Source of the DNA: Bdellovibrionales bacterium
GTDB taxonomy: Bacteria; Bdellovibrionota; Bdellovibrionia; Bdellovibrionales; UBA1609
Direction of reading: 5' to 3'
Length of the DNA stretch: 64,000 nt
NCBI GenBank assembly: GCA_965261545.1
Contig: CBDHDF010000007.1
Span: 192,001 to 256,000, forward strand
The translations under genes were made by a program, and so were the position numbers. Under the pieces are notes generated by a model. It did no database searches. It saw only the letters and a program-made list of their open reading frames with translations, and was not told where the DNA came from. Shown here one piece after another: positions 19,195 to 41,931 of the stretch (position 1 is the stretch's first letter; the number at the start of each line of letters is the position of its first letter).

Positions 19195-19734
19195 GATTTT
19201 AACTCCTAGCCTATATACCTTTGTAGTAATATCTGAATCATCTTTTTCTCGTTTGTTAAATTTTAAGACTTCTCATCAAAAATCGTCTCAATTTCATTAC
19301 TCGGCCATAAGTTAAGTAAACTTTAGAGCGTGTCCTTTGACTAAGCGCATCCAACCTGGAAAAACCAAAAACAGAACCAAAATCTAGGATGATAAAAAAG
19401 GTTGTTATGACACCAAAAATGGCCGGAAATTATGGAGGTTCACGACTCCCAGTCGCAGATCAAATCATCAAAGGAGTTACGTACCTGAATTCCCCAGCGT
19501 TTTGAAAAAGAAGATTTTTCTCAACTAAAAATTATCGTAACATTCATGGGGGCGCCTTGCTTCCCCACCCACGCCCATGAATCTTTCTAGGCCCCCACTT
19601 CTTTGCACGAAGCAACTCGGTGGACAGCTTCGCTGGTCTATATAATTGGCCTCTTTTAGTTACTCTGGACTTTTGATGGTATTTTTGTCATGTATGATTC
19701 CGATACAATAAAGGATAAAGCAATAACATTATTG

Positions 19735-19921
19735 GAAGGTGATAAGATGAGTGGCCGTTGAATAGATTGGTAATTTTAATTCCGTGAAGTAACATGGTCT
19801 TGAGCTTTGGATCGAACCCACGCATGTACCTGCACTCTGAGTGTATGGACGTATAGTAAGTTGACCTATTTTCGCTTTAGAATTTATGGCAAAATCCCAA
19901 GGCTCTAGTTTTATCACCTTC
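19735..19921 (+). ncRNA. Putative bridge RNA of the IS110 element
   Basis: Closing stem GAAGGTGATAA/TTATCACCTTC followed by T7. Inner stems GGCCGT/ATGGTC and GAGCTTTGG/CCAAGGCTC. Loop segments match the target and the donor junction (see findings). Confidence 0.75.
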
Positions 19922-19949
19922 TTTTTTTCTAACAGAAAGGAGGAGTCAT

Positions 19950-21150
19950 GTGGATATTATTTATAGTTCTGTTTGTGGAATAGATGTTCATCAACATATG
20001 TTGATGTGTACGATTGTCAAAGTGGAAGACGGTAAGAAGAAGTTTTTCACAAAAGAGTTCAAGAATTTTCCAAAAAATTTTCCTAGAATGCGCTCTTGGA
20101 TGAAGCCACATAAGGTTGAGAGAGTTCTTTTTGAGAGCACAGGGATTTATTGGAATTCTTTATACGATGATTTGACAGAAAAAGGTTATGAAGTAGATGT
20201 TATCAATGCCTTTCATGTCAAAAATATTACTGGTAAAAAAACTGACGTGTTGGATAGCCAGTGGATTGCAGAGCTTGGTGCTTGTGGTCTTCTAAGAGCT
20301 AGCTTCATTCCTCCACGTGAGATTCGTTCTATTAGACTTTTGGCTCGTTATCGTACAAAAACGATCCGCCAAATATCTTCGGAACAAAATCGTATGTATA
20401 AGGTTCTTGAATATTCAGGCATTCGTTTAACCTATGCAATGTCTAAAGCTGACTGCGTATCTGGTATGGCCATGATTCGTGCCATAGCTAATGGAGAGAG
20501 ATCAGTTTCTAAATTGATGTCTCTTGCCAGAGGGTCTTTACGTCAAAAGACCGAAGAATTTTCTTACGCCCTGTCGGGAAAGATGACGGAAGAAAATCGT
20601 TTTGTTCTTCAACGCATTCTTGATCGAATAGATTTTTTGAAAAAAGAATGCTCTCAAATTGAAGAAGAACTTTTCATTCGTATGAAACCCTATGAAAGGC
20701 AGTGGCATCTACTCCAGACTATACCTGGAATTGACGAATTAAGTGCAGCGCTTTTGATTGCAGAAATAGGAGGCAATGTGAAGTCTTTTAAAAATAAAGG
20801 AAATTTTTGCTCCTGGATGGGGATTTGCCCATCCAATAATGAGAGCGCAGGAAAAAAAGTCTTCACGAACGAGGAAAGCGAACACATATGTGAAATCGTT
20901 GGTATGTGAGATGGCCAATAGTGCTATTAAGACGAATTCACAATTCAAAGGCAAATACCAATCACTTGTTATAAGGCGTGGGCACAAGAGATCAGTGATT
21001 GCCGTTGGTCACAAAATGATGGGAGTTGTTTATTCAGTCATAAGTAATGACACCCCCTACAAAGACCCTGGAATTGACTATGAAAAGCTCATGGTGAAAA
21101 AAAATGCACCAAGGTGGATTAGAGCGTTAAAAAAGTATGATTTCATGTAA
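19950..21150 (+). CDS. IS110 DEDD recombinase split by a +1 frameshift at A7 (20852-20858)
   Basis: GIDVH, ESTGIYW, KTDVLD (DEDD), LLQTIPGI, NESAGK. Continues in another frame as KSSRTRKAN...AVGHK. About 399 aa if fused. Confidence 0.9.
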
Positions 21151-21238
21151 TGTAGGATGATTTAAAAACTCGGACATTTGAAAAAATTCGAAGAACGGAT
21201 AGTGGATTCGTGCGTCCAAACTACCCCGGAGATTCATA

Positions 21239-22953
21239 GTAACTATTCAGGGTGTGCCGCATTAATTCGAACAATTTTTTTAAAAAAAGTATAAAAATTC
21301 TTGACAAGTTTTTGAAGCAAACGACCTCTTTCATTTGTTCTTTATCGAATATGTTCCTGCATATGCCTTAAACTCTCTGAGAGCCATAGTATTGAAAGAT
21401 TGTGAAACATAGGTCGCGGGGGGCACTTCTCATTCCTTTTGCTTCTTAGAACGAATCCTAGTGCATTTTTTTTAATGAAAAAAAGGCATGTTAATATTTT
21501 CATAAGGTAAGTATGAAAATAGAAAATATTGACGTGTCTTCAGCCATAAATAAAATCAGGAAGCTTCTTAAGAAAGAGAAGTCCCTTTCTCCCGCTTTTA
21601 TTGTGGCCATTGAGTTGTTGATCAAAATCATCACTATTCTAGTAAATCAAAAAAAATTAAATAGTCAAAACAGTAGTATTGCCCCTTCTCAAGATCCGAA
21701 TGGCCCTAAAAAGAAACCTAAGGAAGAAACTGGTAAGAAGCCAGGAGGACAACCCGGACACGAAGGAGCTACTTTAAAACCCGTGGATACTCCAGACAAG
21801 GTGGAGTTCATTTCTATTAATAAAGAGGAACTTCCTCCAGGTGATTACATTTCTTCTGGAGTTGAAAAGCGTCAAGTATTTGAGGTAGACCTTTCTGTGC
21901 ATGTCACGGAGTATCAAGGAGAAATCCTCGAAGACCAAGATGGGAATCAGTGGGTTGCAGGTTTTCCAGAAGGAATCAATAACCCAACTCAATATGGCCC
22001 TTCTGTGAAAGCTCACTCAGTTTATATGTCCCAGTTTCAGTTAATCCCTCATCTTCGAGTCGCAAGTTACTTTAATCAATGGGGTCTATCGCTTGCTGGA
22101 TCTACGGTACACAATTTTAACAAATCTGCCTTTGAGGCTCTGGAAGCTTTTGAGGAGTGGGCAAAGGAAACTCTTCTGAACTCACCTTTGATTCATGCTG
22201 ACGAAACTGGAGTGAATGTTAATGGGAAGAGGCTGTGGTTTCACCTCTTGTCCAATGATACTGTGGTTCTCTATCAGGTGGACGAAAAAAGAGGCGCAGA
22301 GGCTATGGATCGCATGGGAATTCTTCCAAAATACACAGGGATTGTTTGTCATGACCATTGGAAACCTTATTATACATATACTTCCTGCATTCATGCCCTT
22401 TGCAATGCGCACCATTTAAGGGAGCTTCAAAGAGCTTGGGAGCAAGATGATCAAAAATGGGCAAAAGAAATGAAGTCTCTTTTAGAGACAATAAACAAAG
22501 AGGTGCACGATACGCAGAACCAATGCCTTTCACAAGACCGAATTGAATATTACAAAGAGAAATATCGAAATATTCTCTTCGAAGGGGAAAAGGAATCTCC
22601 ATTAATGGAGAGGACAGAGAAAAAAAAGAAGGGAAAGGTTAAACAATCCAAATCTAGAAATTTACTAGATCGACTGAGAAACTTTGAAGATGATACCTTG
22701 CTATTTATGAAGGACCCCATAGTTCCATTTACGAATAATATAGCAGAAAATGATCTGAGAATGACCAAAGTTCAGCAGAAAATATCTGGGTGCTTTCGTT
22801 CGTTGATGGGAGCCAAGACATTTTGTAGAAACCGAAGCTTTCTCCTGACTTGCCAGAAAAATGGCATAGAACCTAAAGATGCTCTAAATATGCTATTTCA
22901 AGGAAAACTTCCCTCATTTATGACTCGAATTCGCCCACCCCCTGAATAGTTAC
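21239..22953 (+). mobile_element. IS66-family element (single-ORF, ISBst12-like), complete
   Basis: IRs GTAACTATTCAGGG / CCCTGAATAGTTAC. 8-bp TSD AAATTATC at 19529-19536 and 24662-24669, outside the two IS110 copies. Confidence 0.93.
21513..22949 (+). CDS. IS66 transposase (TnpC-like)
   Basis: NSQNSSIAPSQD, KPGGQPGHEG, HADETG, CHDHW, CNAHHLREL, PFTNNIAENDLR, KISGCFRS. Confidence 0.95.
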   Translation: MKIENIDVSSAINKIRKLLKKEKSLSPAFIVAIELLIKIITILVNQKKLNSQNSSIAPSQDPNGPKKKPKEETGKKPGGQPGHEGATLKPVDTPDKVEFISINKEELPPGDYISSGVEKRQVFEVDLSVHVTEYQGEILEDQDGNQWVAGFPEGINNPTQYGPSVKAHSVYMSQFQLIPHLRVASYFNQWGLSLAGSTVHNFNKSAFEALEAFEEWAKETLLNSPLIHADETGVNVNGKRLWFHLLSNDTVVLYQVDEKRGAEAMDRMGILPKYTGIVCHDHWKPYYTYTSCIHALCNAHHLRELQRAWEQDDQKWAKEMKSLLETINKEVHDTQNQCLSQDRIEYYKEKYRNILFEGEKESPLMERTEKKKKGKVKQSKSRNLLDRLRNFEDDTLLFMKDPIVPFTNNIAENDLRMTKVQQKISGCFRSLMGAKTFCRNRSFLLTCQKNGIEPKDALNMLFQGKLPSFMTRIRPPPE

Positions 22954-23041
22954 TATGAATCTCCGGGGTAGTTTGGACGCACGAATCCACTATCCGTTCT
23001 TCGAATTTTTTCAAATGTCCGAGTTTTTAAATCATCCTACA

Positions 23042-24247
23042 TTACATGAAATCATACTTTTTTAACGCTCTAATCCACCTTGGTGCATTTTTTTTCACCA
23101 TGAGCTTTTCATAGTCAATTCCAGGGTCTTTGTAGGGGGTGTCATTACTTATGACTGAATAAACAACTCCCATCATTTTGTGACCAACGGCAATCACTGA
23201 TCTCTTGTGCCCACGCCTTATAACAAGTGATTGGTATTTGCCTTTGAATTGTGAATTCGTCTTAATAGCACTATTGGCCATCTCACATACCAACGATTTC
23301 ACATATGTGTTCGCTTTCCTCGTTCGTGAAGACTTTTTTTTCCTGCGCTCTCATTATTGGATGGGCAAATCCCCATCCAGGAGCAAAAATTTCCTTTATT
23401 TTTAAAAGACTTCACATTGCCTCCTATTTCTGCAATCAAAAGCGCTGCACTTAATTCGTCAATTCCAGGTATAGTCTGGAGTAGATGCCACTGCCTTTCA
23501 TAGGGTTTCATACGAATGAAAAGTTCTTCTTCAATTTGAGAGCATTCTTTTTTCAAAAAATCTATTCGATCAAGAATGCGTTGAAGAACAAAACAATTTT
23601 CTTCCGTCATCTTTCCCGACAGGGCGTAAGAAAATTCTTCGGTCTTTTGACGTAAAGACCCTCTGGCAAGAGACATCAATTTAGAAACTGATCTCTCTCC
23701 ATTAGCTATGGCACGAATCATGGCCATACCAGATACGCAGTCAGCTTTAGACATTGCATAGGTTAAACGAATGCCTGAATATTCAAGAACCTTATACATA
23801 CGATTTTGTTCCGAAGATATTTGGCGGATCGTTTTTGTACGATAACGAGCCAAAAGTCTAATAGAACGAATCTCACGTGGAGGAATGAAGCTAGCTCTTA
23901 GAAGACCACAAGCACCAAGCTCTGCAATCCACTGGCTATCCAACACGTCAGTTTTTTTACCAGTAATATTTTTGACATGAAAGGCATTGATAACATCTAC
24001 TTCATAACCTTTTTCTGTCAAATCATCGTATAAAGAATTCCAATAAATCCATCCCTGTGCTCTCAAAAAGAACTCTCTCAACCTTATGTGGCTTCATCCA
24101 AGAGCGCATTCTAGGAAAATTTTTTGGAAAATTCTTGAACTCTTTTGTGAAAAACTTCTTCTTACCGTCTTCCACTTTGACAATCGTACACATCAACATA
24201 TGTTGATGAACATCTATTCCACAAACAGAACTATAAATAATATCCAC
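23042..24247 (-). pseudogene. IS110 recombinase with a 4-bp GGAT duplication and an A8 run
   Basis: ATCCATCC at 24047-24054 breaks ESTG-IYW; T8 at 23334-23341; R>C change (ENCF). Confidence 0.9.
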
Positions 24248-24275
24248 ATGACTCCTCCTTTCTGTTAGAAAAAAA

Positions 24276-24462
24276 GAAGGTGATAAAACTAGAGCCTTGG
24301 GATTTTGCCATAAATTCTAAAGCGAAAATAGGTCAACTTACTATACGTCCATACACTCAGAGTGCAGGTACATGCGTGGGTTCGATCCAAAGCTCAAGAC
24401 CATGTTACTTCACGGAATTAAAATTACCAATCTATTCAACGGCCACTCATCTTATCACCTTC
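24276..24462 (-). ncRNA. Putative bridge RNA, copy 2
   Basis: Same sequence as 19735-19921. Confidence 0.7.
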
Positions 24463-25133
24463 CAATAATGTTATTGCTTTATCCTTTATTGTATCGGAAT
24501 CATACATGACAAAAATACCATCAAAAGTCCAGAGTAACTAAAAGAGGCCAATTATATAGACCAGCGAAGCTGTCCACCGAGTTGCTTCGTGCAAAGAAGT
24601 GGGGGCCTAGATAAGATTCATGGGCGTGGGTGGGGAAGCAAGGCGCCCCCATGAATGTTACAAATTATCAAGAATAAAATATTATCAAAGTGGAATTATT
24701 CAATAGTTCCATCCTAAATTGAATTGTGAATTGTTCAACTTATTTTGACACACCTCCTTAGTTTTGGACCTAGTTCAAACTCTGGGGAATTCAATTACGT
24801 AACAAAGCAAGTTTCATATATAAATATACAAATGAGACAAGCACAAGAGACGTGATCTTTATTGAGACAAAATCAATTTTTACTAGACTTTGGTAGAATC
24901 CCTTAGTATCCTTAAAATTAAGAAGCAGCATGATAAAGATTAAGAAATATATATAAGAATACGAAACCAATAAGAATTACGAAATAAAATTAAAGACTCC
25001 ATGGACCGAAGGCTTTGACGAGTGGCCTAAGGGTCCTAGCAAAAGAAGAGAAGCGGCACAAGGAAGTGCTAAAGTAGAACGTATATGCAAAAGGAGGTGG
25101 CACGAAAAAATAAAGCTAACTTCGGGCAATTCC

Positions 25134-27800: not shown

Positions 27801-29951
27801 TTAGTTCCTGTCCAGGGAAGAAAGTTAAGTAGTTTTAAGTATTTACATGCCTTCCCTTTAGATTTTATGCTTTAAAATGGAGTCCATCAAACATAATCCG
27901 TGTAAATTCAGTTACTTACATAAAACGGAAAAATAAAATAAGTTCCCCCCCCTCTCTTGACGAACCTTTCACAGCCCCTCCCTTTCAGTGACTTATGTGG
28001 CTATCAACTGGTTACTTGATATGAGAGGAAGAGTTGGATCAACCTGTGTTTCCACCGTGGTGATTTCAAACCTCCTTCAGGGAAATAACATTACGTTGCG
28101 CATCAACTTCAAAAAATACTTGACGTGTTTTTTCAGAGAAATAATTTTTGATATTTTATTCTTCATTTATTTTTTATGTAGGTTTTAGGAGGCGTGGGAA
28201 CCTCTCTATGAGGTAGAATTCTTATCCATGTTCTCCGAGAACCTCTCTGATTTTTTTCTTCTTAAAAGACATCCTTGCTCACTTTTTTCCCTCAAAAAAA
28301 CGTATGTTAATATAAAAATTAAAGAGAAACTTTCACCAAAGGGGGGACTATGCGCCATTTGAAGAAGACACAGTTGGGACTCTTTTCCCAATATCCTAAC
28401 CACCAACTCAGTACAGAATTGCAGCAAATTAATAACATCATTGATCGCCATCCAGAGTTTGCCCATATGGTTCATGAAGACCTTGTTAAAGAAAAGAAAG
28501 ATTCTGGTGATATTGGTATGACATCGGAGCAAGTTCTCAAGGTGGCTATTCTTAAATCCATAAGAGGTCTTTCCTATCGTGCGTTAGCCTTTAATCTTGT
28601 CGATTCAGTATCCACCAGAGCTTTTCTGGGCCTTGAATTGGAAGAAAATTACGCTCACTCCACCTTACAGGACTTGATTGTTCAAATAAGTGAAGAAACT
28701 TGGGGAATTATTAGCGCCTCTTTAGTTTCAGATGCAAGAGATCAAAAGATTGAGCCGTGTAAGAAAATGAGATTGGACAGTACAGTGACGAAATCAAATA
28801 TTCATCATCCAACGGATGCATCGCTTTTATATGACTGCATAAGAGTTACAGAAAGAGAATTTAAAAAAGTTCGTAAAAATGTCATGAAAGATTTTTGGCG
28901 ACTTATTTCAAGAGAAGATCTTAAGAGAGCAAAAACCTTGCTTTACAAAATTAATAATTCCAAAAATGATGCGGAAAGACTACCTTGCTATAAGGAGCTT
29001 TTAAAAATCGCTACCAAATTGAACAAAGGATTACCTGATACCATCAGAAAGATAAAAAAAGAACAAAAATGTGTGAAGATGAATGCTTTGAAAAAGAGTC
29101 TAAAACAGTTAGAAAATGTTGCCTTCTACCTGGAAAAAATCATCTTTCAAACTCAAAAAAGAGTTATTGAGGGGAAAAAAGTATCTTCTGAAAAAAAGGT
29201 CCTATCCATCTTTGAACCGCATACAGACATTATTGTAAAGGGGCAAAGAGAAGTCGAGTTTGGGCATAAAATCTTTCTGACCTCAGGGCAAAGCAACATG
29301 ATTTTAGATTGTCAGATCCCTGATGGCAACCCCGCAGACTCTGATATGTTTTTAAAAGTTATGAATTCAGTGACACAAACCTATGGGGCTTGCCCTGTAA
29401 AAGTAAGTGCAGATGGTGGGTTTGCTTCAAAAGAAAATCTTGAAGAGGCCAAAGAGATGGGGGCTAAAGATGTTTGCTTCCCAGAAAAAAAAGGAATGAA
29501 AATATTAAAGATGGTTAAAAGTGCTTGGGTCTTTAAAAATCTTCTCAATTGGAGAGCCGGAATAGAGGCTGTTATTTCATTCCTTAAGAGATGTTTTGGT
29601 ATGAGAGTTGCTTACTGGAAAGGGCATGATGGTTTTAAGAGGTATGTAAAGAATGCCGTTTGTGCCTATAATTTTGTTGTCTTGGCAAGACATGAATTAT
29701 CAACTGTCACCTAAATTTATCCATTAGGAATAACAGCAATGGACCAGGTCGAAGGTGCTAAAATCTTCCAAAGGTAGGGGTGCGTCTTCAAATCGAAAAA
29801 ACTAGGGCGCAAGTCGCTTAAAGACCTTTTTCCCCTTAATCTGTAGAGTTTGTGTGGCAAATCTCCAACTCTCACTCCCCCATTGAGGCATTGGGAGGCT
29901 CAATGGGGAGTGTCAGAGAACAAAAAATGGGCCTTTCTGGACAGAAACTAA
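27801..29951 (+). mobile_element. DDE insertion sequence (ISNCY/IS5-like)
   Basis: Terminal IR TTAGTTCCTGTCCAG / CTGGACAGAAACTAA. Flanks are not a direct repeat (rimO stop on the left, IS66 3' end on the right). Confidence 0.8.
28350..29714 (+). CDS. DDE transposase (ISNCY/IS5-like)
   Basis: RLDSTVTKSNIHHPTD, SIFEPHTDIIVKG, EFGHK, SADGGF, WRAGIEAVISFLKR. Confidence 0.9.
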   Translation: MRHLKKTQLGLFSQYPNHQLSTELQQINNIIDRHPEFAHMVHEDLVKEKKDSGDIGMTSEQVLKVAILKSIRGLSYRALAFNLVDSVSTRAFLGLELEENYAHSTLQDLIVQISEETWGIISASLVSDARDQKIEPCKKMRLDSTVTKSNIHHPTDASLLYDCIRVTEREFKKVRKNVMKDFWRLISREDLKRAKTLLYKINNSKNDAERLPCYKELLKIATKLNKGLPDTIRKIKKEQKCVKMNALKKSLKQLENVAFYLEKIIFQTQKRVIEGKKVSSEKKVLSIFEPHTDIIVKGQREVEFGHKIFLTSGQSNMILDCQIPDGNPADSDMFLKVMNSVTQTYGACPVKVSADGGFASKENLEEAKEMGAKDVCFPEKKGMKILKMVKSAWVFKNLLNWRAGIEAVISFLKRCFGMRVAYWKGHDGFKRYVKNAVCAYNFVVLARHELSTVT

Positions 29952-30013
29952 ATATGCTATTTCAAGGAAAACTTCCCTCATTTATGACTCGAATTCGCCC
30001 ACCCCCTGAATAG
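29948..30013 (+). mobile_element. Right-end remnant of a second IS66 copy; the IR is completed at 34756-34764 after the IS21 insertion
   Basis: CTAAATATGCTATTTCAAGG...CCCCCTGAATAG matches 22884-22949. Confidence 0.9.
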
Positions 30014-31174
30014 TGTTAGGCGCCAATTAAAATTGGCCATTTTTAGAAGCCGTCGCCAATGAAAAACGGCCAGTTGATGATGTACTGATTTAGTTATTCT
30101 TCGTTCAGAGTTTAGTCAAGTGTCTTTATTTTGCTCATCATTTAACTCGGACTATGCCACAAGATTCTGAGGAATGATTTTCTGCCCACCACTTTTGGCA
30201 TGACCCCAAATGCATCCTTCAGCCCTATGGCAGAGGTAAATGGAGTATTTTTCAGGATTCCTTGGCGCAGCTAATGTCTAAAGCTCCGCGAGAGTGACGA
30301 GCAAATAGTACGGTAAAAGCCAGTTATCCATAAATTTATCCATGGCGACACTGCGGCTGTGACCCCGATGTCTAGCAACGCAGTGCTGCTGTGGATAAAT
30401 TTTGTGGATAACTGGCGAGTTCCTTCCCCAAAAGTGGGGATCTCTAATGAACTTCTTTGGTTGAACTTTCCTCTTTGCTCTGTTTAGACTTGGCTTTTGC
30501 CGATTCGGTTCTCCAACTTTCTTTTCCTTCAATGTTGAGGGTTTCACAGTTGTGAATGATTCGATCAACAGCAGCAGCGGTGGTAATAGGGTTAAGAAAC
30601 ACCTTATCCCATTCAGAGTATGTTAAGTTTGTAGTGATCATGAGACTTTTCCTTTCATATCGCTGAGATATGAATTGAAAGAAAAGATCTGCCCCCTCTG
30701 TGCAGGAAGCTGTATAGCCAAGTTCATCACAAGCAATAAGATCAAAACGGTCTAATTTCTTAAAAAGAGCATTCAATGAGAGTTCTTTCTTGCTTTCACG
30801 CATTGTTTCAATAAGTTCATGAGTGGTGACCCATAAACATCGATAGCCTTGTTCACAGAGTGAACGAACTAGGGACATGGCCAAATGACTTTTCCCCATT
30901 CCAAAGCTTCCGTAAAACACAACATTACAGGCTTTTCTGACCCACTCTCCCTCTGCCATCCAATTAATTTGCTGAGCTGTCACTCCCGTTCTTTTCTGGA
31001 AGTTATAAGTTTGGAGTGATTTAAGTTGAGGAAGCTTGGCCCCCTTAAGCAATCTTTTCACTCTCTGGGAATGCTTGTCAGCAAGCTCATTTTGAACGAG
31101 TATACCTAAATACTGTTCATACGTCTTTTTTGTTTTTTCGGCAACTCTAGCCGTTGCAACATATTCATCCGCCA

Positions 31175-32665
31175 CGAATTGGGTCAAAAATAACGACACC
31201 AAGACGCATCACATTAAAACACCTTCGTGGTGCCCGGGTTATGGTCCTCCACCTGGCTGGCTCATTATTCCGACACCGAGTTCCCACTTTTCTCTTTTTG
31301 AGTCAAAAATGTGCGTTGAGGAGACTCCCTCACTCAATAAGACACCGGTTGTTACGCCTTCTAAAACAGATCAGCCGAGCTACCCCTCTGTTGATCCTCT
31401 CAGTAAGATTGATCTTTGGAAACAAACAATCAACGAGGGGGTCTTCAGTGAGGGAGTCGGCTGTTAATGCTTACTTAACTGCAATTTCAGGCTTATATCA
31501 ACAAAGTTCTAAGGCTAAAAAAGGGGAGTTGCTAGATCATGCGGAACTGGTCACAAACCTCTCTAGGAAGCGACTCATAAGGAGATTAAACGAGATTCAA
31601 CAAAATAATGGCTCTGTGCCACTCAAGCGGTCAGGGAGGCCTCTGGCTTATTCTCAAGAGGAGTTACGACCCCACATCAAATATTTGTGGGAACAAATGG
31701 AAAAAATCTCGGCTGTACGAATAAAAGCCGCTCTACCGGATTGGCTCCCCAATTATGAGTCGTGTCCTCCCCACTTAAAGCTTCAGTTAGAAAAAATGAG
31801 TGCCAGCACCTTGAAGCGTTATCTGAAGGAAATTCGCTTGGCTTCATTGGTCTCTAAGGGATTGTCCACAACCTGTCCTGCCCAATATATGAAAAATAAG
31901 GTTCCCATCAATACACTGGACTCCAAGGTCACAAGGCCTGGTTATATACAAACAGATACGGTTGCTCACTGTGGAACGAGTGCCCAAGGCCCTTTTATCA
32001 GCTCTCTTACAGTGACCGACATTAACACCACATGGACAGAGTGTCGGGCTATGTTTACCAAGAAAGGGACGGAGGTGAGAAGGCAAATCAACAACATTAA
32101 CCAAGCTATACCTTTTAAACTACTGGCCATGAACTCAGACTCAGGAAGTGAGTTCTTAAACAAGCCTGTCCTTCAATTCACCCAATTATCTAACATCAAG
32201 TTCACTCGTTCTCGCCCCTACAAAAAGAATGACAACTGCTACATTGAGCAAAAAAACTTCACCCACGTCAGAGAATTGTTTGGCTATGAGAGGTTTGAAG
32301 ATCCAAGGCTAGTTCCTTTAATGAATGACATTTATAAAAACCACTGGAGTCCCCTCCAGAACTTCTTTCTCCCCACATTTAAACTTCAGGAAAAGGTACG
32401 AGTGGGAGCCAGAATCAAGAAAAAGTATGGCACCCCTAAGACTCCCTATCAGAGAGTTATTGAAAGTGGGGTATTAAACCATGAGGAGGATGAAGCACTG
32501 AGGAGGCGTAAAGCTGAACTCAACCCCTTTGAGCTAAAGAGGGGACTTGAACTAAAACTTAAAGAGTTTTTCAAATTAGTACGACAGGAAAATATCAAGG
32601 AGGTGGCATAAGATGAGCAAAATGACAAACCGCTCCTTGGTGTCGTTTACTTATGACCCAATACG
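31175..32665 (+). mobile_element. IS with an integrase-core (rve) transposase (ISNCY-type), inserted in istB
   Basis: IR CGAATTGGGTCA..AACGACACCAAG / CTTGGTGTCGTT..TGACCCAATACG; 5-bp TSD CGCCA (31170-31174 and 32666-32670). Confidence 0.88.
31448..32611 (+). CDS. Integrase-core DDE transposase
   Basis: QTDTVAHCG, LTVTD, NSDSGSEF, TRSRPYKKNDNCYIEQKN. Start moved to GTG 31448, inside the IS. Confidence 0.88.
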   Translation: MRESAVNAYLTAISGLYQQSSKAKKGELLDHAELVTNLSRKRLIRRLNEIQQNNGSVPLKRSGRPLAYSQEELRPHIKYLWEQMEKISAVRIKAALPDWLPNYESCPPHLKLQLEKMSASTLKRYLKEIRLASLVSKGLSTTCPAQYMKNKVPINTLDSKVTRPGYIQTDTVAHCGTSAQGPFISSLTVTDINTTWTECRAMFTKKGTEVRRQINNINQAIPFKLLAMNSDSGSEFLNKPVLQFTQLSNIKFTRSRPYKKNDNCYIEQKNFTHVRELFGYERFEDPRLVPLMNDIYKNHWSPLQNFFLPTFKLQEKVRVGARIKKKYGTPKTPYQRVIESGVLNHEEDEALRRRKAELNPFELKRGLELKLKEFFKLVRQENIKEVA

Positions 32666-32721
32666 CGCCATCGCTGGAAGTCGGAGTTTTTTAAGAGAAC
32701 CTATAAGTTCTTCGTGATTCA

Positions 32722-34188
32722 TTAAGAACCTCCTATGTTTGGAACAAGACTGTCATATTGAGACAATCTAGGTTGAAGTGGTTTTTGTTGGTCATTCAAA
32801 TTAATTTTGGTGGGATTTCCTAAGAGCAAATCTTTTATGGATTTAAAGTCGAAAATCTCACGACTTTCTAATTGAAGCTCCATGGCTGTAGATAAGTCCT
32901 GCCAACTCACATGCTGAATCAAGTTGATAACTCTTAAATATTCATGCTCGGCACGGCTTGAATCTTGTTGCTTGAGGTATTGATAAAAATTTTCAAACAC
33001 ATTTGTTGGAAAAAGAATGGATCGGTGAGCCCATCTTACCATGGCTTGCGGCTTACGAACTAAAGAGGGAAGGATATGTTCAAGAAGAAGACTATGCTCC
33101 CCATCAGGTTTTCTTTGATGGCGAGCGACAATTTCTTGCTTCCCTCCTGCACGATAGATCGTGACATGATAGGGACCCTGTACGGTTTTACAGGGAGATT
33201 GGATCACCTCATCAGGTATGGAATATGTGGTTTTACCTATTCTCAAAGTCCCATAACCATTACTTTGACAAATATTCACCTTACAGAGAATATCTTCATC
33301 TCGTGGAGGCAAAGGCTTAAGAACTTTGGCCTCCTCCTCAAAGCGAGATTTGGTGGAGTCACTCTGATGCTGATCCATATAAGACTCTAAAAACTGATTC
33401 AAATGATCCCAGTCTTTAAAAACAATTCCTTTGTTTCTAACAATATTTTTTATCCGAGAACTGAAGGTTCGAATATCACGCTCCACATCTCCCTTGTCAG
33501 AGCCCTTCCCTGCGCGGCAGGGAAGAACCTTAAATCCATAGTATTGGATGGCTCGATCAAAAGATTGGGTGTAAATTCGCTGATTTCCTTTAAGAACTTT
33601 CTTCACACAGGGAGATAAATTATCAATACGGATGTTCGCACTCATCCCACCTATCTTTTCAAAAAAAGCATGCACCCCATCGATGAAACACTCATAGACA
33701 AGAAAGGGGTAGGCACGAACCCAACAGGTGCCACTACAAGGCAATGTTCCAAAATGGAGATGAACGATCTGAACACCATCGGCAAATGGTAAAGCAACCT
33801 TCTCCTTAAAATCAAACTGAGCCTGTTCTCCAGGATCATATCTTTGGCTGAAAAAACGCTCCTTGGGGCGAGAACCAAGAATCTCACAAACTCTTCTCTG
33901 AACCGTTCTCTCACTCCCACGATAACCCTCCTCAACTAATAGCTCATATATTTCACGGGCGGTGTTACTTGGGTTCAACTTCAAAAAGTACTTCACCCGA
34001 TCCATATATCCATTAAGGGGATCTGGGCGAGTTCTTTTGGACCTCGCCTTGTACTTCGGTGGGGTGTTGGACTTACAGTACTTGCGCACCGTCTTACGAT
34101 TGATCCCTAATTCACGAGATATTTCTGTCTTATTTTTACCACTGTGACTCAGGTCACGAATGCGGCCGAAAGTGTATTGACTAATCAT
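32722..34188 (-). CDS. istA: IS21 transposase IstA
   Basis: HTH ISRELGINRKTVRKY, PGEQAQFDF, RIDN, DKGDVER. ATG 34188 follows a GAGGAGG RBS; TAATG couples it to istB. Confidence 0.93.
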   Translation of the reverse strand: MISQYTFGRIRDLSHSGKNKTEISRELGINRKTVRKYCKSNTPPKYKARSKRTRPDPLNGYMDRVKYFLKLNPSNTAREIYELLVEEGYRGSERTVQRRVCEILGSRPKERFFSQRYDPGEQAQFDFKEKVALPFADGVQIVHLHFGTLPCSGTCWVRAYPFLVYECFIDGVHAFFEKIGGMSANIRIDNLSPCVKKVLKGNQRIYTQSFDRAIQYYGFKVLPCRAGKGSDKGDVERDIRTFSSRIKNIVRNKGIVFKDWDHLNQFLESYMDQHQSDSTKSRFEEEAKVLKPLPPRDEDILCKVNICQSNGYGTLRIGKTTYSIPDEVIQSPCKTVQGPYHVTIYRAGGKQEIVARHQRKPDGEHSLLLEHILPSLVRKPQAMVRWAHRSILFPTNVFENFYQYLKQQDSSRAEHEYLRVINLIQHVSWQDLSTAMELQLESREIFDFKSIKDLLLGNPTKINLNDQQKPLQPRLSQYDSLVPNIGGS

Positions 34189-34760
34189 AAGATCCTCCTC
34201 ATTGCTAACCTTTTGAGTTGCAAAAGGGAGGGACTCTGTGAGCTTAGTATCTATATCAGAAGAAGAGACTTCATTGTCTAGTATTTGAACACTCCCTGAA
34301 GATTGGTCACTTTTCATTGGCGACAACCTCCATATTGAAAGTGGGACATTTTAATTGGCGACGGCTTTAAGGGAAGCCTGTCTTCAAAAAGAAATTCCAT
34401 GAAAATTGAGGCAAATGTTGGAATCTTGTGGAATTTAAATACTTTAGAAAATGGGCACAGCCTAAACAGGCTTTTCTTGACTATATATTTAACCTCATTG
34501 AAATCCAGAAACAGTCTACAAATGAGAAATATGGAACCTGAATAGGCTGTCATGGAAGGACTCTCCAACACGGAGCCCCTTTCCAGGTCGACAAGAACCC
34601 AAAAGGAGTTCTTATCAGCTCGGAGCCTTTTTATGAGTAATATCAATTGATTATATGCGTCTCGGTTGACAATGCCAAAAATCACCATAGGTCCTCCTCT
34701 GAAAAGTGGCCACTTTTCATTGGCGACGGTGGGGCATTTTAATTGTCAGCTAACAAATAG

Positions 34761-36471
34761 TTACTATGAATCTCCGGGGTAGTTTGGACGCACGAATCCA
34801 CTATCCGTTCTTCGAATTTTTTCAAATGTCCGAGTTTTTAAATCATCCTACATTACATGAAATCATACTTTTTTAACGCTCTAATCCACCTTGGTGCATT
34901 TTTTTTCACCATGAGCTTTTCATAGTCAATTCCAGGGTCTTTGTAGGGGGTGTCATTACTTATGACTGAATAAACAACTCCCATCATTTTGTGACCAACG
35001 GCAATCACTGATCTCTTGTGCCCACGCCTTATAACAAGTGATTGGTATTTGCCTTTGAATTGTGAATTCGTCTTAATAGCACTATTGGCCATCTCACATA
35101 CCAACGATTTCACATATGTGTTCGCTTTCCTCGTTCGTGAAGACTTTTTTTCCTGCGCTCTCATTATTGGATGGGCAAATCCCCATCCAGGAGCAAAAAT
35201 TTCCTTTATTTTTAAAAGACTTCACATTGCCTCCTATTTCTGCAATCAAAAGCGCTGCACTTAATTCGTCAATTCCAGGTATAGTCTGGAGTAGATGCCA
35301 CTGCCTTTCATAGGGTTTCATACGAATGAAAAGTTCTTCTTCAATTTGAGAGCATTCTTTTTTCAAAAAATCTATTCGATCAAGAATGCGTTGAAGAACA
35401 AAACGATTTTCTTCCGTCATCTTTCCCGACAGGGCGTAAGAAAATTCTTCGGTCTTTTGACGTAAAGACCCTCTGGCAAGAGACATCAATTTAGAAACTG
35501 ATCTCTCTCCATTAGCTATGGCACGAATCATGGCCATACCAGATACGCAGTCAGCTTTAGACATTGCATAGGTTAAACGAATGCCTGAATATTCAAGAAC
35601 CTTATACATACGATTTTGTTCCGAAGATATTTGGCGGATCGTTTTTGTACGATAACGAGCCAAAAGTCTAATAGAACGAATCTCACGTGGAGGAATGAAG
35701 CTAGCTCTTAGAAGACCACAAGCACCAAGCTCTGCAATCCACTGGCTATCCAACACGTCAGTTTTTTTACCAGTAATATTTTTGACATGAAAGGCATTGA
35801 TAACATCTACTTCATAACCTTTTTCTGTCAAATCATCGTATAAAGAATTCCAATAAATCCATCCCTGTGCTCTCAAAAAGAACTCTCTCAACCTTATGTG
35901 GCTTCATCCAAGAGCGCATTCTAGGAAAATTTTTTGGAAAATTCTTGAACTCTTTTGTGAAAAACTTCTTCTTACCGTCTTCCACTTTGACAATCGTACA
36001 CATCAACATATGTTGATGAACATCTATTCCACAAACAGAACTATAAATAATATCCACATGACTCCTCCTTTCTGTTAGAAAAAAAGAAGGTGATAAAACT
36101 AGAGCCTTGGGATTTTGCCATAAATTCTAAAGCGAAAATAGGTCAACTTACTATACGTCCATACACTCAGAGTGCAGGTACATGCGTGGGTTCGATCCAA
36201 AGCTCAAGACCATGTTACTTCACGGAATTAAAATTACCAATCTATTCAACGGCCACTCATCTTATCACCTTCCAATAATGTTATTGCTTTATCCTTTATT
36301 GTATCGGAATCATACATGACAAAAATACCATCAAAAGTCCAGAGTAACTAAAAGAGGCCAATTATATAGACCAGCGAAGCTGTCCACCGAGTTGCTTCGT
36401 GCAAAGAAGTGGGGGCCTAGATAAGATTCATGGGCGTGGGTGGGGAAGCAAGGCGCCCCCATGAATGTTAC
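34761..36471 (-). mobile_element. IS110-family element, copy 3 (1711 bp; GGAT duplication; recombinase pseudogene 34853-36057; bridge-like RNA 36086-36272)
   Basis: Same ends as copy 1; ATCCATCC at 35857-35864. Confidence 0.95.
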
Positions 36472-36800
36472 ACATTTTCCATATTGGTGACTTTGGAAGT
36501 ATCCCAACCACTGACATCTGGGTTTGCCTTGATGGCTCCTAAAAACATACCTTTCATATCTTTAACCATAGAGGTGTCCCACCCACTTGTATCTGGATTT
36601 ACCTCAGCGGCATTTCGAAATAAATTCGCCATATCAACAACCTTGGAGGTATTCCAGCTACTTGTATTTGGATTTGCCTTGGTGGTCCCCAAAAACATAC
36701 CTCTCATATCTTTAACCATAGAGGTGTCCCAACCATTCGTATCTGGTATGGCTAAAACAGCTCTGTGAAACATATTTTTCATATTCGTAACAGCTGACAT
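36468..36800 (-). CDS. 110-aa DUF285/BspA-repeat ORF made by duplication
   Basis: WDTS.V.DM..MF repeats; GGAGG RBS; stop codon supplied by the IS GTAA. Confidence 0.5.
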   Translation of the reverse strand: MSAVTNMKNMFHRAVLAIPDTNGWDTSMVKDMRGMFLGTTKANPNTSSWNTSKVVDMANLFRNAAEVNPDTSGWDTSMVKDMKGMFLGAIKANPDVSGWDTSKVTNMENV

Positions 36801-36815
36801 ATTTCCTCCAAGGAC

Positions 36816-38522
36816 TTACTATGAATCTCCGGGGTAGTTTGGACGCACGAATCCACTATCCGTTCTTCGAATTTTTTCAAATGTCCGAGTTTTTAAATCA
36901 TCCTACATTACATGAAATCATACTTTTTTAACGCTCTAATCCACCTTGGTGCATTTTTTTTCACCATGAGCTTTTCATAGTCAATTCCAGGGTCTTTGTA
37001 GGGGGTGTCATTACTTATGACTGAATAAACAACTCCCATCATTTTGTGACCAACGGCAATCACTGATCTCTTGTGCCCACGCCTTATAACAAGTGATTGG
37101 TATTTGCCTTTGAATTGTGAATTCGTCTTAATAGCACTATTGGCCATCTCACATACCAACGATTTCACATATGTGTTCGCTTTCCTCGTTCGTGAAGACT
37201 TTTTTTCCTGCGCTCTCATTATTGGATGGGCAAATCCCCATCCAGGAGCAAAAATTTCCTTTATTTTTAAAAGACTTCACATTGCCTCCTATTTCTGCAA
37301 TCAAAAGCGCTGCACTTAATTCGTCAATTCCAGGTATAGTCTGGAGTAGATGCCACTGCCTTTCATAGGGTTTCATACGAATGAAAAGTTCTTCTTCAAT
37401 TTGAGAGCATTCTTTTTTCAAAAAATCTATTCGATCAAGAATGCGTTGAAGAACAAAACGATTTTCTTCCGTCATCTTTCCCGACAGGGCGTAAGAAAAT
37501 TCTTCGGTCTTTTGACGTAAAGACCCTCTGGCAAGAGACATCAATTTAGAAACTGATCTCTCTCCATTAGCTATGGCACGAATCATGGCCATACCAGATA
37601 CGCAGTCAGCTTTAGACATTGCATAGGTTAAACGAATGCCTGAATATTCAAGAACCTTATACATACGATTTTGTTCCGAAGATATTTGGCGGATCGTTTT
37701 TGTACGATAACGAGCCAAAAGTCTAATAGAACGAATCTCACGTGGAGGAATGAAGCTAGCTCTTAGAAGACCACAAGCACCAAGCTCTGCAATCCACTGG
37801 CTATCCAACACGTCAGTTTTTTTACCAGTAATATTTTTGACATGAAAGGCATTGATAACATCTACTTCATAACCTTTTTCTGTCAAATCATCGTATAAAG
37901 AATTCCAATAAATCCCTGTGCTCTCAAAAAGAACTCTCTCAACCTTATGTGGCTTCATCCAAGAGCGCATTCTAGGAAAATTTTTTGGAAAATTCTTGAA
38001 CTCTTTTGTGAAAAACTTCTTCTTACCGTCTTCCACTTTGACAATCGTACACATCAACATATGTTGATGAACATCTATTCCACAAACAGAACTATAAATA
38101 ATATCCACATGACTCCTCCTTTCTGTTAGAAAAAAAGAAGGTGATAAAACTAGAGCCTTGGGATTTTGCCATAAATTCTAAAGCGAAAATAGGTCAACTT
38201 ACTATACGTCCATACACTCAGAGTGCAGGTACATGCGTGGGTTCGATCCAAAGCTCAAGACCATGTTACTTCACGGAATTAAAATTACCAATCTATTCAA
38301 CGGCCACTCATCTTATCACCTTCCAATAATGTTATTGCTTTATCCTTTATTGTATCGGAATCATACATGACAAAAATACCATCAAAAGTCCAGAGTAACT
38401 AAAAGAGGCCAATTATATAGACCAGCGAAGCTGTCCACCGAGTTGCTTCGTGCAAAGAAGTGGGGGCCTAGATAAGATTCATGGGCGTGGGTGGGGAAGC
38501 AAGGCGCCCCCATGAATGTTAC
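36816..38522 (-). mobile_element. IS110-family element, copy 4 (1707 bp; recombinase 36908-38108 with A7 shift; bridge-like RNA 38137-38323)
   Basis: Same ends and ORFs as copy 1. Confidence 0.95.
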
Positions 38523-38851
38523 ACATTTTCCATATTGGTGACTTTGGAAGTATCCCAACCACTGACATCTGGGTTTGCCTTGATGGCTCCTAAAAACATA
38601 CCTTTCATATCTTTAACCATAGAGGTGTCCCACCCACTTGTATCTGGATTTACCTCAGCGGCATTTCGAAATAAATTCGCCATATCAACAACCTTGGAGG
38701 TATTCCAGCTACTTGTATTTGGATTTGCCTTGGTGGTCCCCAAAAACATACCTCTCATATCTTTAACCATAGAGGTGTCCCAACCATTCGTATCTGGTAT
38801 GGCTAAAACAGCTCTGTGAAACATATTTTTCATATTCGTAACAGCTGACAT
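38519..38851 (-). CDS. 110-aa DUF285/BspA-repeat ORF, second duplicate
   Basis: Same protein as 36468-36800. Confidence 0.5.
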   Translation of the reverse strand: MSAVTNMKNMFHRAVLAIPDTNGWDTSMVKDMRGMFLGTTKANPNTSSWNTSKVVDMANLFRNAAEVNPDTSGWDTSMVKDMKGMFLGAIKANPDVSGWDTSKVTNMENV

Positions 38852-38866
38852 ATTTCCTCCAAGGAC

Positions 38867-40573
38867 TTACTATGAATCTCCGGGGTAGTTTGGACGCACG
38901 AATCCACTATCCGTTCTTCGAATTTTTTCAAATGTCCGAGTTTTTAAATCATCCTACATTACATGAAATCATACTTTTTTAACGCTCTAATCCACCTTGG
39001 TGCATTTTTTTTCACCATGAGCTTTTCATAGTCAATTCCAGGGTCTTTGTAGGGGGTGTCATTACTTATGACTGAATAAACAACTCCCATCATTTTGTGA
39101 CCAACGGCAATCACTGATCTCTTGTGCCCACGCCTTATAACAAGTGATTGGTATTTGCCTTTGAATTGTGAATTCGTCTTAATAGCACTATTGGCCATCT
39201 CACATACCAACGATTTCACATATGTGTTCGCTTTCCTCGTTCGTGAAGACTTTTTTTCCTGCGCTCTCATTATTGGATGGGCAAATCCCCATCCAGGAGC
39301 AAAAATTTCCTTTATTTTTAAAAGACTTCACATTGCCTCCTATTTCTGCAATCAAAAGCGCTGCACTTAATTCGTCAATTCCAGGTATAGTCTGGAGTAG
39401 ATGCCACTGCCTTTCATAGGGTTTCATACGAATGAAAAGTTCTTCTTCAATTTGAGAGCATTCTTTTTTCAAAAAATCTATTCGATCAAGAATGCGTTGA
39501 AGAACAAAACGATTTTCTTCCGTCATCTTTCCCGACAGGGCGTAAGAAAATTCTTCGGTCTTTTGACGTAAAGACCCTCTGGCAAGAGACATCAATTTAG
39601 AAACTGATCTCTCTCCATTAGCTATGGCACGAATCATGGCCATACCAGATACGCAGTCAGCTTTAGACATTGCATAGGTTAAACGAATGCCTGAATATTC
39701 AAGAACCTTATACATACGATTTTGTTCCGAAGATATTTGGCGGATCGTTTTTGTACGATAACGAGCCAAAAGTCTAATAGAACGAATCTCACGTGGAGGA
39801 ATGAAGCTAGCTCTTAGAAGACCACAAGCACCAAGCTCTGCAATCCACTGGCTATCCAACACGTCAGTTTTTTTACCAGTAATATTTTTGACATGAAAGG
39901 CATTGATAACATCTACTTCATAACCTTTTTCTGTCAAATCATCGTATAAAGAATTCCAATAAATCCCTGTGCTCTCAAAAAGAACTCTCTCAACCTTATG
40001 TGGCTTCATCCAAGAGCGCATTCTAGGAAAATTTTTTGGAAAATTCTTGAACTCTTTTGTGAAAAACTTCTTCTTACCGTCTTCCACTTTGACAATCGTA
40101 CACATCAACATATGTTGATGAACATCTATTCCACAAACAGAACTATAAATAATATCCACATGACTCCTCCTTTCTGTTAGAAAAAAAGAAGGTGATAAAA
40201 CTAGAGCCTTGGGATTTTGCCATAAATTCTAAAGCGAAAATAGGTCAACTTACTATACGTCCATACACTCAGAGTGCAGGTACATGCGTGGGTTCGATCC
40301 AAAGCTCAAGACCATGTTACTTCACGGAATTAAAATTACCAATCTATTCAACGGCCACTCATCTTATCACCTTCCAATAATGTTATTGCTTTATCCTTTA
40401 TTGTATCGGAATCATACATGACAAAAATACCATCAAAAGTCCAGAGTAACTAAAAGAGGCCAATTATATAGACCAGCGAAGCTGTCCACCGAGTTGCTTC
40501 GTGCAAAGAAGTGGGGGCCTAGATAAGATTCATGGGCGTGGGTGGGGAAGCAAGGCGCCCCCATGAATGTTAC
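38867..40573 (-). mobile_element. IS110-family element, copy 5 (1707 bp; recombinase 38959-40159 with A7 shift; bridge-like RNA 40188-40374)
   Basis: Same ends and ORFs as copy 4. Confidence 0.95.
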
Positions 40574-41931
40574 ACATTTTCCATATTGGTGACTTTGGAA
40601 GTATCCCAACCACTGACATCTGGGTTTGCCTTGATGGCTCCTAAAAACATACCTTTCATATCTTTAACCATAGAGGTGTCCCACCCACTTGTATCTGGAT
40701 TTACCTCAGCGGCATTTCGAAATAAATTCGCCATATCAACAACCTTGGAGGTATTCCAGCTACTTGTATTTGGATTTGCCTTGGTGGTCCCCAAAAACAT
40801 ACCTCTCATATCTTTAACCATAGAGGTGTCCCAACCATTCGTATCTGGTATGGCTAAAACAGCTCTGTGAAACATATTTTTCATATTCGTAACAGCTGAC
40901 ATATTTCCTCCAAGGACTTTCTTAAGGAGAGAATTACCTTTAAATGCACGAGATAGATCTTTCCATCCCATATTGCCAAAATTGACAACCTCGAAGAGTA
41001 AATTTCTTGAAGATACTGAGGTATTTTCAAAGCCCTCACAAGTACCTATTATCCTCATCGTATATTCTCCAGCTTTCGCATAGGTATGTCTCTTGTCAGT
41101 ATCCTGAAAAGATGTCACCTCGCTAACAGCAGTTTGATCTCCCCAATCCACAGTAAAATTATATTTAAGACTTGAACTTTCTTTAAGGGGAAGGGTGAAT
41201 GAAAAATCACCTTCAGGAATACGCCATTTTGTGACAAAGTGATTAATCTCGTTGGTTACGGAGGACTTGGCTACAAAATTGACGTCACTTTGACTTGCCT
41301 TGATAACAGCTGGATGAGATGATATGTCTTGCACATCAAAATTTCCTGAAAACGTGTTGTCTTGTGTGCATGATAAAATCTTTTCTACATTGGGTTCCCC
41401 AATAACAACAGTGACATCTCCAAGGTTGGAATCGCAAGTACCTTTTATGTTATAGTCTGCCATATTGGATGAAGAAATGGCAGACAATTCCTTGAAGCTC
41501 AAATCTATTGGAATGAGAATGAGATTATTATCAACAGTGACACTCTGCTTGTTTCCTTTATGGGTGACCGTAATAGTGGCTTTTTTTGAAGTGATTTGTC
41601 GGGTATCAACATATCCTGAGAAAGTATTGGAACGACAGGGTACTTCTACAGGTTTGGTTATGGGCTCTCCAATAACTATCGAAACATTTCCATTTCCCCC
41701 CAAAGCTGAATGGCAGGCTCCCCAAACAAGATATTCGCTCGCATTGGCTGAAGAAATTGGCAGAAGTGATCCATTGATACTAAGTTTTGTAACACTGAAA
41801 ACCTTTGTCTTTTTTCTATTTGATCCTTTATCACAACCCACAAAAATCATTAGAGATAAAATGAATAAAAAGTGAAACTTTAAATATTTTTTGACTATCA
41901 TGATGAATTTCCTCAAGTTGACATTTTTCAA
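40570..41931 (-). CDS. DUF285/BspA-type repeat surface lipoprotein, 3'-truncated by IS insertion
   Basis: Lipobox IFVGC; FVTKW...FTVDWGD...HTYAKAGEY (PKD-like); ~25-aa WDTS repeats ending at the TAA of the IS GTAA. Confidence 0.88.
   Translation of the reverse strand: MKNVNLRKFIMIVKKYLKFHFLFILSLMIFVGCDKGSNRKKTKVFSVTKLSINGSLLPISSANASEYLVWGACHSALGGNGNVSIVIGEPITKPVEVPCRSNTFSGYVDTRQITSKKATITVTHKGNKQSVTVDNNLILIPIDLSFKELSAISSSNMADYNIKGTCDSNLGDVTVVIGEPNVEKILSCTQDNTFSGNFDVQDISSHPAVIKASQSDVNFVAKSSVTNEINHFVTKWRIPEGDFSFTLPLKESSSLKYNFTVDWGDQTAVSEVTSFQDTDKRHTYAKAGEYTMRIIGTCEGFENTSVSSRNLLFEVVNFGNMGWKDLSRAFKGNSLLKKVLGGNMSAVTNMKNMFHRAVLAIPDTNGWDTSMVKDMRGMFLGTTKANPNTSSWNTSKVVDMANLFRNAAEVNPDTSGWDTSMVKDMKGMFLGAIKANPDVSGWDTSKVTNMENV

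Follow-up and report, generated by a model that had tools for sequence, protein, structure and literature searches.

Tandem duplication of complete modules of IS110, a family of RNA-guided insertion sequences (IS), has recently been reported by Hu, Xie, Yang, and Rubin (bioRxiv 10.64898/2026.08.14.744561), whose main text gives 437 such cases, with repeat boundaries that carry left-donor matches only and ends homologous to the flanking DNA, and speculates that reactions of this kind duplicate the intervening segment in place. For IS621, Xie et al. (bioRxiv 10.64898/2026.08.31.748434) report that strand exchange needs only one donor arm and the core and that the products are single-strand and asymmetric, by which they explain off-target joins. 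Tandem cargo repeats arising from IS110 activity were seen with CazIS110-1 in 3 of 96 colonies (bioRxiv 10.1101/2025.10.25.684509), and IS-bounded head-to-tail amplifications have been described for ISPpu10 (bioRxiv 10.64898/2026.03.19.712850). In the case of IS30, DNA in the vicinity is attacked by the active end-to-end junction of a dimer, and the rearrangements that this initiates begin at the tip of one end (PMC9333248). Here, we describe an array of three IS110 copies in a Bdellovibrionales bacterium (assembly GCA_965261545.1; 11 contigs, 4.3 Mb), located in a window of 64,000 nucleotides, i.e., the whole stretch of DNA that was analyzed, which corresponds to C7:192001-256000; coordinates without a contig name are those of the window. 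The array is an instance of the IS110 side-reaction recently described. We consider it probable that the array arose by transfer of a resident right end, either on its own or as part of an end-to-end dimer, to an AA core close by, and that unequal crossover then amplified the resulting unit. The array is laid out as follows.

34761..36471, minus strand: IS110 copy c, distal, 1711 bp; frame broken by extra GGAT (+GGAT) at element position 612; right end abuts an IS66 terminal repeat, later split by an IS21-family element
36472..36815, minus strand: duplicated 344-bp flank, copy 1, internal DUF285 repeats
36798..36843, minus strand: new junction right end-GTAA/GTCC, copy 1, joined at 36816/36815; also in short-read contig record 30 of run X4
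36816..38522, minus strand: IS110 copy b, 1707 bp
38523..38866, minus strand: duplicated 344-bp flank, copy 2, with the second of the new junctions at 38867/38866
38867..40573, minus strand: IS110 copy a, 1707 bp, identical to copy b
40574..40917, minus strand: original copy of the 344-bp flank; 40574-40581 is the IS66 target duplication GAAAATGT, with its duplication partner at C11:10459
40908..40927, minus strand: intact parental partner site CTTAAGAAA/GTCC; core AA at 40918-40919; bridged in three short-read runs
40570..41931, minus strand: 5' part of a repeat gene, DUF285 (PF03382), interrupted by an IS66 insertion; 3' part on contig C11

Each IS110 copy has the same 344-bp segment of the DUF285 gene upstream of its left end in transposase orientation (on the plus strand, after each copy), and the three segments are identical to one another. 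The initial annotation had described three copies of one element in a tandem with a uniform period of 2051 bp. The three units are confirmed, and the two proximal ones (a and b, 2051 bp each) agree to the letter, but the period is not uniform, the first spacing being 2055 bp and the second 2051 bp because distal copy c carries the 4-bp insertion. Nor are the copies all of one kind, since the distal unit carries a different allele: +GGAT was found in 2 of the 37 alignments covering position 612, the other carrier being the copy at 22950-24661. Repeats with at least five copies make up 35.5% of the assembly. By contrast with the idea that the flank had been captured in the sense of being moved elsewhere, 310 of its 314 31-mers are present exactly three times in the assembly, and these whole-assembly counts gave no second genomic site with flank plus IS. 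The array looks real and well preserved in structure. It has no evident function; it amplifies a piece of an already broken gene together with frameshifted transposase copies and looks inert.

On the minus strand, the new junction reads ...GATTCATAGTAA joined to GTCCTTGGAGG and occurs twice, and the parental site reads ...CTCCTTAAGAAA joined to GTCCTTGGAGG and occurs once, at 40917/40918. Throughout the assembly, right end-GTAA followed by GTCCTTGG was likewise found twice and the parental CTTAAGAAA followed by GTCCTTGG once; left of the join, junction and parent have only AA in common. Both the junction and the intact parental site are thus as initially annotated. The right end is complete up to GTAA and is then followed by GTCCTTGG, which matches the right donor, CATTCATG, by eye at 1 of 8 positions. 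The repeat-unit boundary therefore lacks a right-donor match and keeps the left donor, the pattern of left-donor-only tandem expansion. The same comparison by eye gives 3 of 8 positions in agreement between the partner site and the right target, in line with the poor guide match noted at the outset; the partner site agrees with the candidate left-target guide at 5 of 8 positions, a match that most other off-target sites do not have. The reciprocal junction, in which the left half of the parent would precede a left end, was not found in the assembly among 42 exact and 50 fuzzy left-end matches. This absence, already noted, had been taken to exclude an ordinary insertion, a conclusion that does not follow, because crossover with a sister lacking the insertion, or segregation of the reciprocal products, also leaves one junction. 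In its present state, the locus is not a composite transposon with both hybrid junctions, though a past intermediate may have had that form. What the sequence allows to be read firmly is the exact end, the AA core, the intact parent, the single type of junction, and the cis position.

The assembly holds 35 IS110 right ends, of which 15 stand at the IS66 repeat, 3 have target-like or interrupted flanks (C7:226761, C10:579514, and C11:729292), 8 are perfect right-left tandems, and 9 are joined in cis to an upstream site. All 35 are joined at the same exact base. The nine cis joins use eight distinct sites, each with its parental copy upstream, and AA stands at the join in every one of the eight parents. 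As AA makes up 0.114 of the dinucleotides of the element, the chance of this is 0.114^8 = 3e-8; the core is therefore fixed as AA, the off-target joins narrowing it from GTAAC. Moreover, all eight partner sites lie inside IS110 or at most 344 bp upstream of a left end, and IS110 represents 1.4% of the genome and 4% of its DNA present in at least five copies. Similar one-sided junctions at other copies, which the initial annotation had proposed looking for, were indeed found: six of the eight sites are one-sided, with periods of about 18, 19, 156, 1627, 1760, and 2051 bp. A second duplication of flanking DNA, of about 48 bp, is at C7:311413-314880 (site C7:313124; parent AGCAA/CTCT). The other two sites are two-sided insertions into another copy (C7:264074/265780 and C10:1020994/1009933). 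No AA-only insertion away from IS110 was found among the 35 right ends; two unexplained flanks begin target-like, with CTATTCA and CTACTCA.

Among homologues elsewhere, the locus L174 (OY970336.1), whose element is a 35%-identical homologue, has the layout flank (148 bp)-IS-flank-IS, with the junction CCGGAG/ACCC for a parent TTTGAG/ACCC, and the foreign locus L155 is a perfect tandem. Repeats at L140, L132, L061, L062, and L105 were not counted, being cut by locus ends or of another layout. Several further arrangements were observed in the genome studied here. The two-sided insertion at C10:1009933/1020994 lies exactly at the candidate left-donor guide of the element itself (7 shared bases), i.e., in self-targeted guide-coding DNA. 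Head-to-tail IS110 arrays with perfect joins of the circle type and mixed alleles are at C7:121213-128208, C7:263185-270025, C2:82064-85474, and C7:343399-346810. Mini-elements of about 106 bp, made of the IS110 left-end hairpin and a right-end-like ATTCATA, are at C11:725851-725957 and C10:576451-576557, one preceding a full IS110 copy and the other an IS66-like end. Finally, C2:159370-168761 is a perfect 3 x 3130-bp array without IS110, and there are about a dozen further non-IS110 tandem duplications.

The initial annotation had proposed read depth and the junction's occurrence in reads as checks, and both were carried out on short-read contigs of four runs (X1 to X4) from one sample and one study, which is perhaps the source sample and not independent biological support. 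The junction was found in one run: record 30 of X4 (403 nucleotides [nt]) corresponds to 36443-36845 with no differences and spans the left end, the 344 bp, and the right end, its IS side being 30 letters long (28 not shared with the parent) for a bridging standard of 31 letters. It is not among the listed pieces of X1 to X3, outside of which there are 133 further pieces. Contigs of X1, X2, and X3 bridge the parental site. Single-copy yardsticks for depth were the IS110 body and the IS21 part, with average copy numbers in the assembly of 36.2 and 60.2, and one unique contig in X1. Relative to single copy, the depth of the 344 bp or of its left-end join was 2.7 to 5.4 times in X1, 2.0 to 2.2 times in X2, and 2.9 to 3.6 times in X4, i.e., about 2 to 5 times, figures that are rough because the depth of a contig is a mean value, with a bias where cover is low. 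These depths agree with about three copies and not with one; the number of units may be two, three, or four. Tandem order cannot be read from contigs, and no contig among the listed pieces spans the whole array. Two joints in the short-read contigs, 36599-36768 and 40614-40942, were set aside as probable paralogues with sides under 30 letters, and gaps in contig cover were given no weight.

The history of the site involves an IS66-family element (PF03050), whose terminal repeat CTATTCAGGG follows 15 of the 35 IS110 right ends. At 19537-24661, an IS66 with an inward-facing IS110 on each end lies within the 8-bp duplication AAATTATC. Judged from such flanks, the usual target of IS110 is the terminal GTAAC of IS66, and insertion appears to rebuild this target at the right end. 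IS66 ends were not named as an IS110 target in the titles or opening abstract lines of the literature found. The IS110 left end, GTAAC ATTCATGGGGG, is similar to the IS66 repeat, GTAAC TATTCAGGGGG, and either transposase might therefore confuse the two. As for the array, the 8 bp before its left end, GAAAATGT, are found again following the left end of an IS66 at C11:10454, with the rest of the DUF285 frame coming next; IS66 therefore broke the gene, and IS110 then entered the IS66 right end. Two features lie beyond the distal copy.

29948..30014, plus strand: IS66 right-end remnant, 67 bp, the original IS110 target
30015..34755, minus strand: IS21-family element (IstB, PF01695), 5 bp inside the IS66 end, with duplication AATAG, and interrupted by an rve-type element

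The IS21 insertion is later than the IS110 entry. Two DDE_Tnp_1/DUF772 elements have swapped flanks (27804-29947 in the window and C11:6661-8806), from which it can be read that a reciprocal exchange between DDE_Tnp_1-type copies placed the two parts of one IS66, and likewise those of the DUF285 gene, on separate contigs. It follows from this history that the original target is occupied by the distal IS110 copy. A reading of this copy as a hybrid whose right flank is foreign was rejected, as that flank is the IS66 end expected from target duplication.

The element was assigned to IS110 because its open reading frame matches PF01548 and PF02371. Its coding and candidate guide features are the following.

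37149..38108, minus strand: transposase open reading frame, 319 amino acids (aa), PF01548 and PF02371; leaves frame at the A7 run 37200-37206, with the remainder in the open reading frame 36908-37219
37200-37206, 35145-35151, and 39251-39257: A7 runs in the array copies
38199..38205, minus strand: candidate left-donor guide ATAGTAA in the 5' noncoding end, also in copies a and c

The N-terminal DEDD RuvC-like domain (PF01548) was detected at E = 2.9e-23, above the cut-off, with D12, E62, D99, and D102 invariant or almost so in 20 sequences, and the C-terminal domain (PF02371) at E = 6.1e-13, with S299 conserved. In all three array copies, the frame is lost at the A7 run just after S299; 11 other matches are open frames of 404 to 423 aa. 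The A-run right after the conserved SAG motif is A7 in 18, A9 (in frame) in 14, and A8 in 3 of the 35 copies, and A9 in the short-read consensus contigs. Because the assembly is bimodal in this respect, A7 as a mere long-read error was dropped as an explanation, despite the short-read consensus. The frame is also lost at the lysine run in 11 of 19 aligned homologues, a set chosen to include short ones. These patterns suggest slippage-dependent expression in this IS110 subgroup.

GTAAC recurs as a direct repeat at the two ends and the target, and the element has neither terminal inverted repeats nor a target duplication of its own. In sequence, the eight perfect right-left joins correspond to a circle junction. 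In the IS110 group, as opposed to IS1111, a long noncoding end with the donor and target guides precedes the open reading frame. In the 5' noncoding end (413 nt here), all four elements tested contain a copy of the right end that extends to the core (7 to 9 nt; p = 0.16, 0.05, 0.05, and <0.002), as would be expected of a candidate left-donor guide; no guide was found for the right side. The guide order of IS621 served for orientation. A stretch at position 224, TGAATAG, is complementary to the right target; it was rejected as a guide on account of its p value (0.17) and of its place upstream of the likely left-target guide. Folding of the 5' end gave no signal over shuffles (z = -0.56). No close relatives were found in a single-protein scan of genome contigs, alignment scans returned only 34 to 44% relatives, and among 60 related genomes, 11 had only distant matches of at most 40% over short stretches; with only distant relatives found, the guides cannot be fixed by covariation. 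A 65-nt piece of the 5' end (38374-38438; element positions about 84 to 148) matches dozens of genome sites at about 95% and is probably shared with another multicopy element. Elsewhere in the window, 15334-19194 on the minus strand encodes a 1286-aa protein with a lipoprotein-like start and about 11 to 12 repeats of about 104 aa, possibly FN3-like.

The model that we propose starts from the history read from the sequence, in which IS66 inserted into the DUF285 gene and IS110 into the terminal GTAAC of that IS66. Acting on the resident right end, the IS110 recombinase would then have carried out a strand exchange between the AA core there and the AA that lies 344 bp upstream of the left end, whether on the sister chromosome or within one and the same molecule. 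The enzyme was probably provided in trans by in-frame copies, because the array copies are out of frame at the A7 run. A lone right end may have acted as a left-donor half-match, a route that we find quite conceivable, if somewhat short of an even chance. More tentatively, the right end may have stood within the right-left junction of a tandem dimer, a full donor site, which would have recombined with the site on the sister, the reciprocal product segregating away. Dimers are common in this genome and often allele-mixed, plausibly because insertion leaves GTAAC and the right target intact. The product would be flank-IS-flank-IS, with the parental site kept and the right-end junction only, the reciprocal product having gone to the other daughter or never been made. 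Unequal homologous crossover between the 2-kb repeats would then give the third unit. The distal +GGAT allele would require one exchange with another IS110 lineage, and collapse of a mixed dimer would supply that allele.

The initial annotation had likewise proposed that the right end recombined with an off-target core upstream of the left end, with amplification following; this stands as the best reading, backed by AA and the cis position at all eight sites, next to a rival that starts from ordinary insertion. In this rival, an unlinked IS110 inserted normally at the off-target AA site, and crossover with a sister lacking the insertion, or clean loss of the outermost copy, preceded the amplification. 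We judge it unlikely, but several observations weigh against transfer of a resident end and some of them speak for insertion. Simple cis duplication of one copy does not yield a distal 4-bp allele shared with a neighboring copy, whereas under ordinary insertion, no additional step is needed to account for the allele difference, provided that the crossover was located before position 612. Units also differ in the second flank case (341+ATTAT, 1346+A; C7:311413/313173) and at C11:725957/727659 (A7 versus A9), and these differences, with those of the array, keep ordinary insertion alive. The two two-sided sites on C7 and C10 indicate that ordinary off-target insertion near resident copies occurs, and ISPpu10 amplifications bounded by a new insertion are described (10.64898/2026.03.19.712850). 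The routes are not told apart by one-sided sites within the element, because two-sided insertion followed by collapse also gives such sites. Furthermore, the right-end probe stops 4 nt before the join, and breakpoints in the last 30 nt would be missed; ATAGTAA taken alone gives p = 0.16 and is, for this element, a candidate guide without significance; and the flank layout was seen in only 1 of 175 foreign loci scanned, many of them too short to show it. Ordinary insertion has its own difficulties. With no AA-only insertion found away from IS110, incoming circles would have to be drawn to resident copies; the sisters would have to differ at the moment of crossover; and, for IS621, clean excision is seemingly a minor product in what has been reported.

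Transfer of the resident right end also has to be weighed against two further readings. An assembly artifact or copy-number error, in which a free 2051-bp circle or an over-walked graph loop provided the join, would fit the letter-identical units a and b, the other perfect array (3 x 3130 bp, without IS110), the lack of a listed contig spanning the array, and a junction contig seen in one of four runs and one letter under the bridging standard. However, the distal unit differs from a and b, the depth of the 344 bp exceeds single copy in X1, X2, and X4, and both junction and parent are present in short-read contigs, which makes such an error improbable. Illegitimate recombination by the host, without the transposase and at 2 bp of microhomology present by chance, is the hardest to credit: the site shares just 2 bp and the genome has many non-IS110 tandem duplications, but the exact base of all 35 right ends is used and AA is found at eight of eight partner sites.

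Altogether, the array represents a natural record, with the parental sites still readable, of a bridge-recombinase side-reaction that is only now being described. The eight sites of this one genome point to a local reaction, and the choice between a lone end and a dimer junction, or between a half-match and the core only, becomes a testable question. As a tentative extension, in this IS110 subgroup, the partner of the right end may need only the core dinucleotide and proximity, without a guide match, and the rebuilt target may lead to recurrent dimers whose full donor junction drives local duplications. If partner choice were core-only, each resident copy would act on a small scale to amplify the DNA upstream of it, and guide-based off-target prediction would miss proximity-driven duplications that bridge recombinases could produce. 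The locus has a bearing on off-target duplications in bridge editing and on the pick-up of neighboring DNA by IS110.

One-ended capture is a feature of IS91/ISCR elements; the transposase chemistry of IS30 and of IS91/ISCR, DDE and HUH, respectively, is unlike that of IS110. The IS30 dimers, as described, are analogous to the dimer route proposed here, but neither they nor IS91/ISCR elements involve an RNA guide or a shared core. With CazIS110-1 and ISPpu10, the reported boundaries are perfect end-to-end joins or a second on-target insertion, whereas the array here is bounded by an off-target core. The IS621 half-match was reported in vitro, with a CT core and a half-match site that fits one arm; the partner site here, compared by eye, fits the right donor and the right target no better than chance and fits a candidate left-target guide only loosely. 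Compared with the expanded loci in the main text of Hu et al., whose supplementary figures may hold the exact same layout, this genome differs in that its parental partner sites are still there, each with the core dinucleotide retained, in that the DNA duplicated is located beyond the left end, and in that alleles are mixed among the units. Moreover, insertion here leaves GTAAC and the right target intact, whereas in that text the target is not regenerated by insertion. To the reaction described there, the present genome adds eight readable partner sites, which suggest a core-only, proximity-driven choice.

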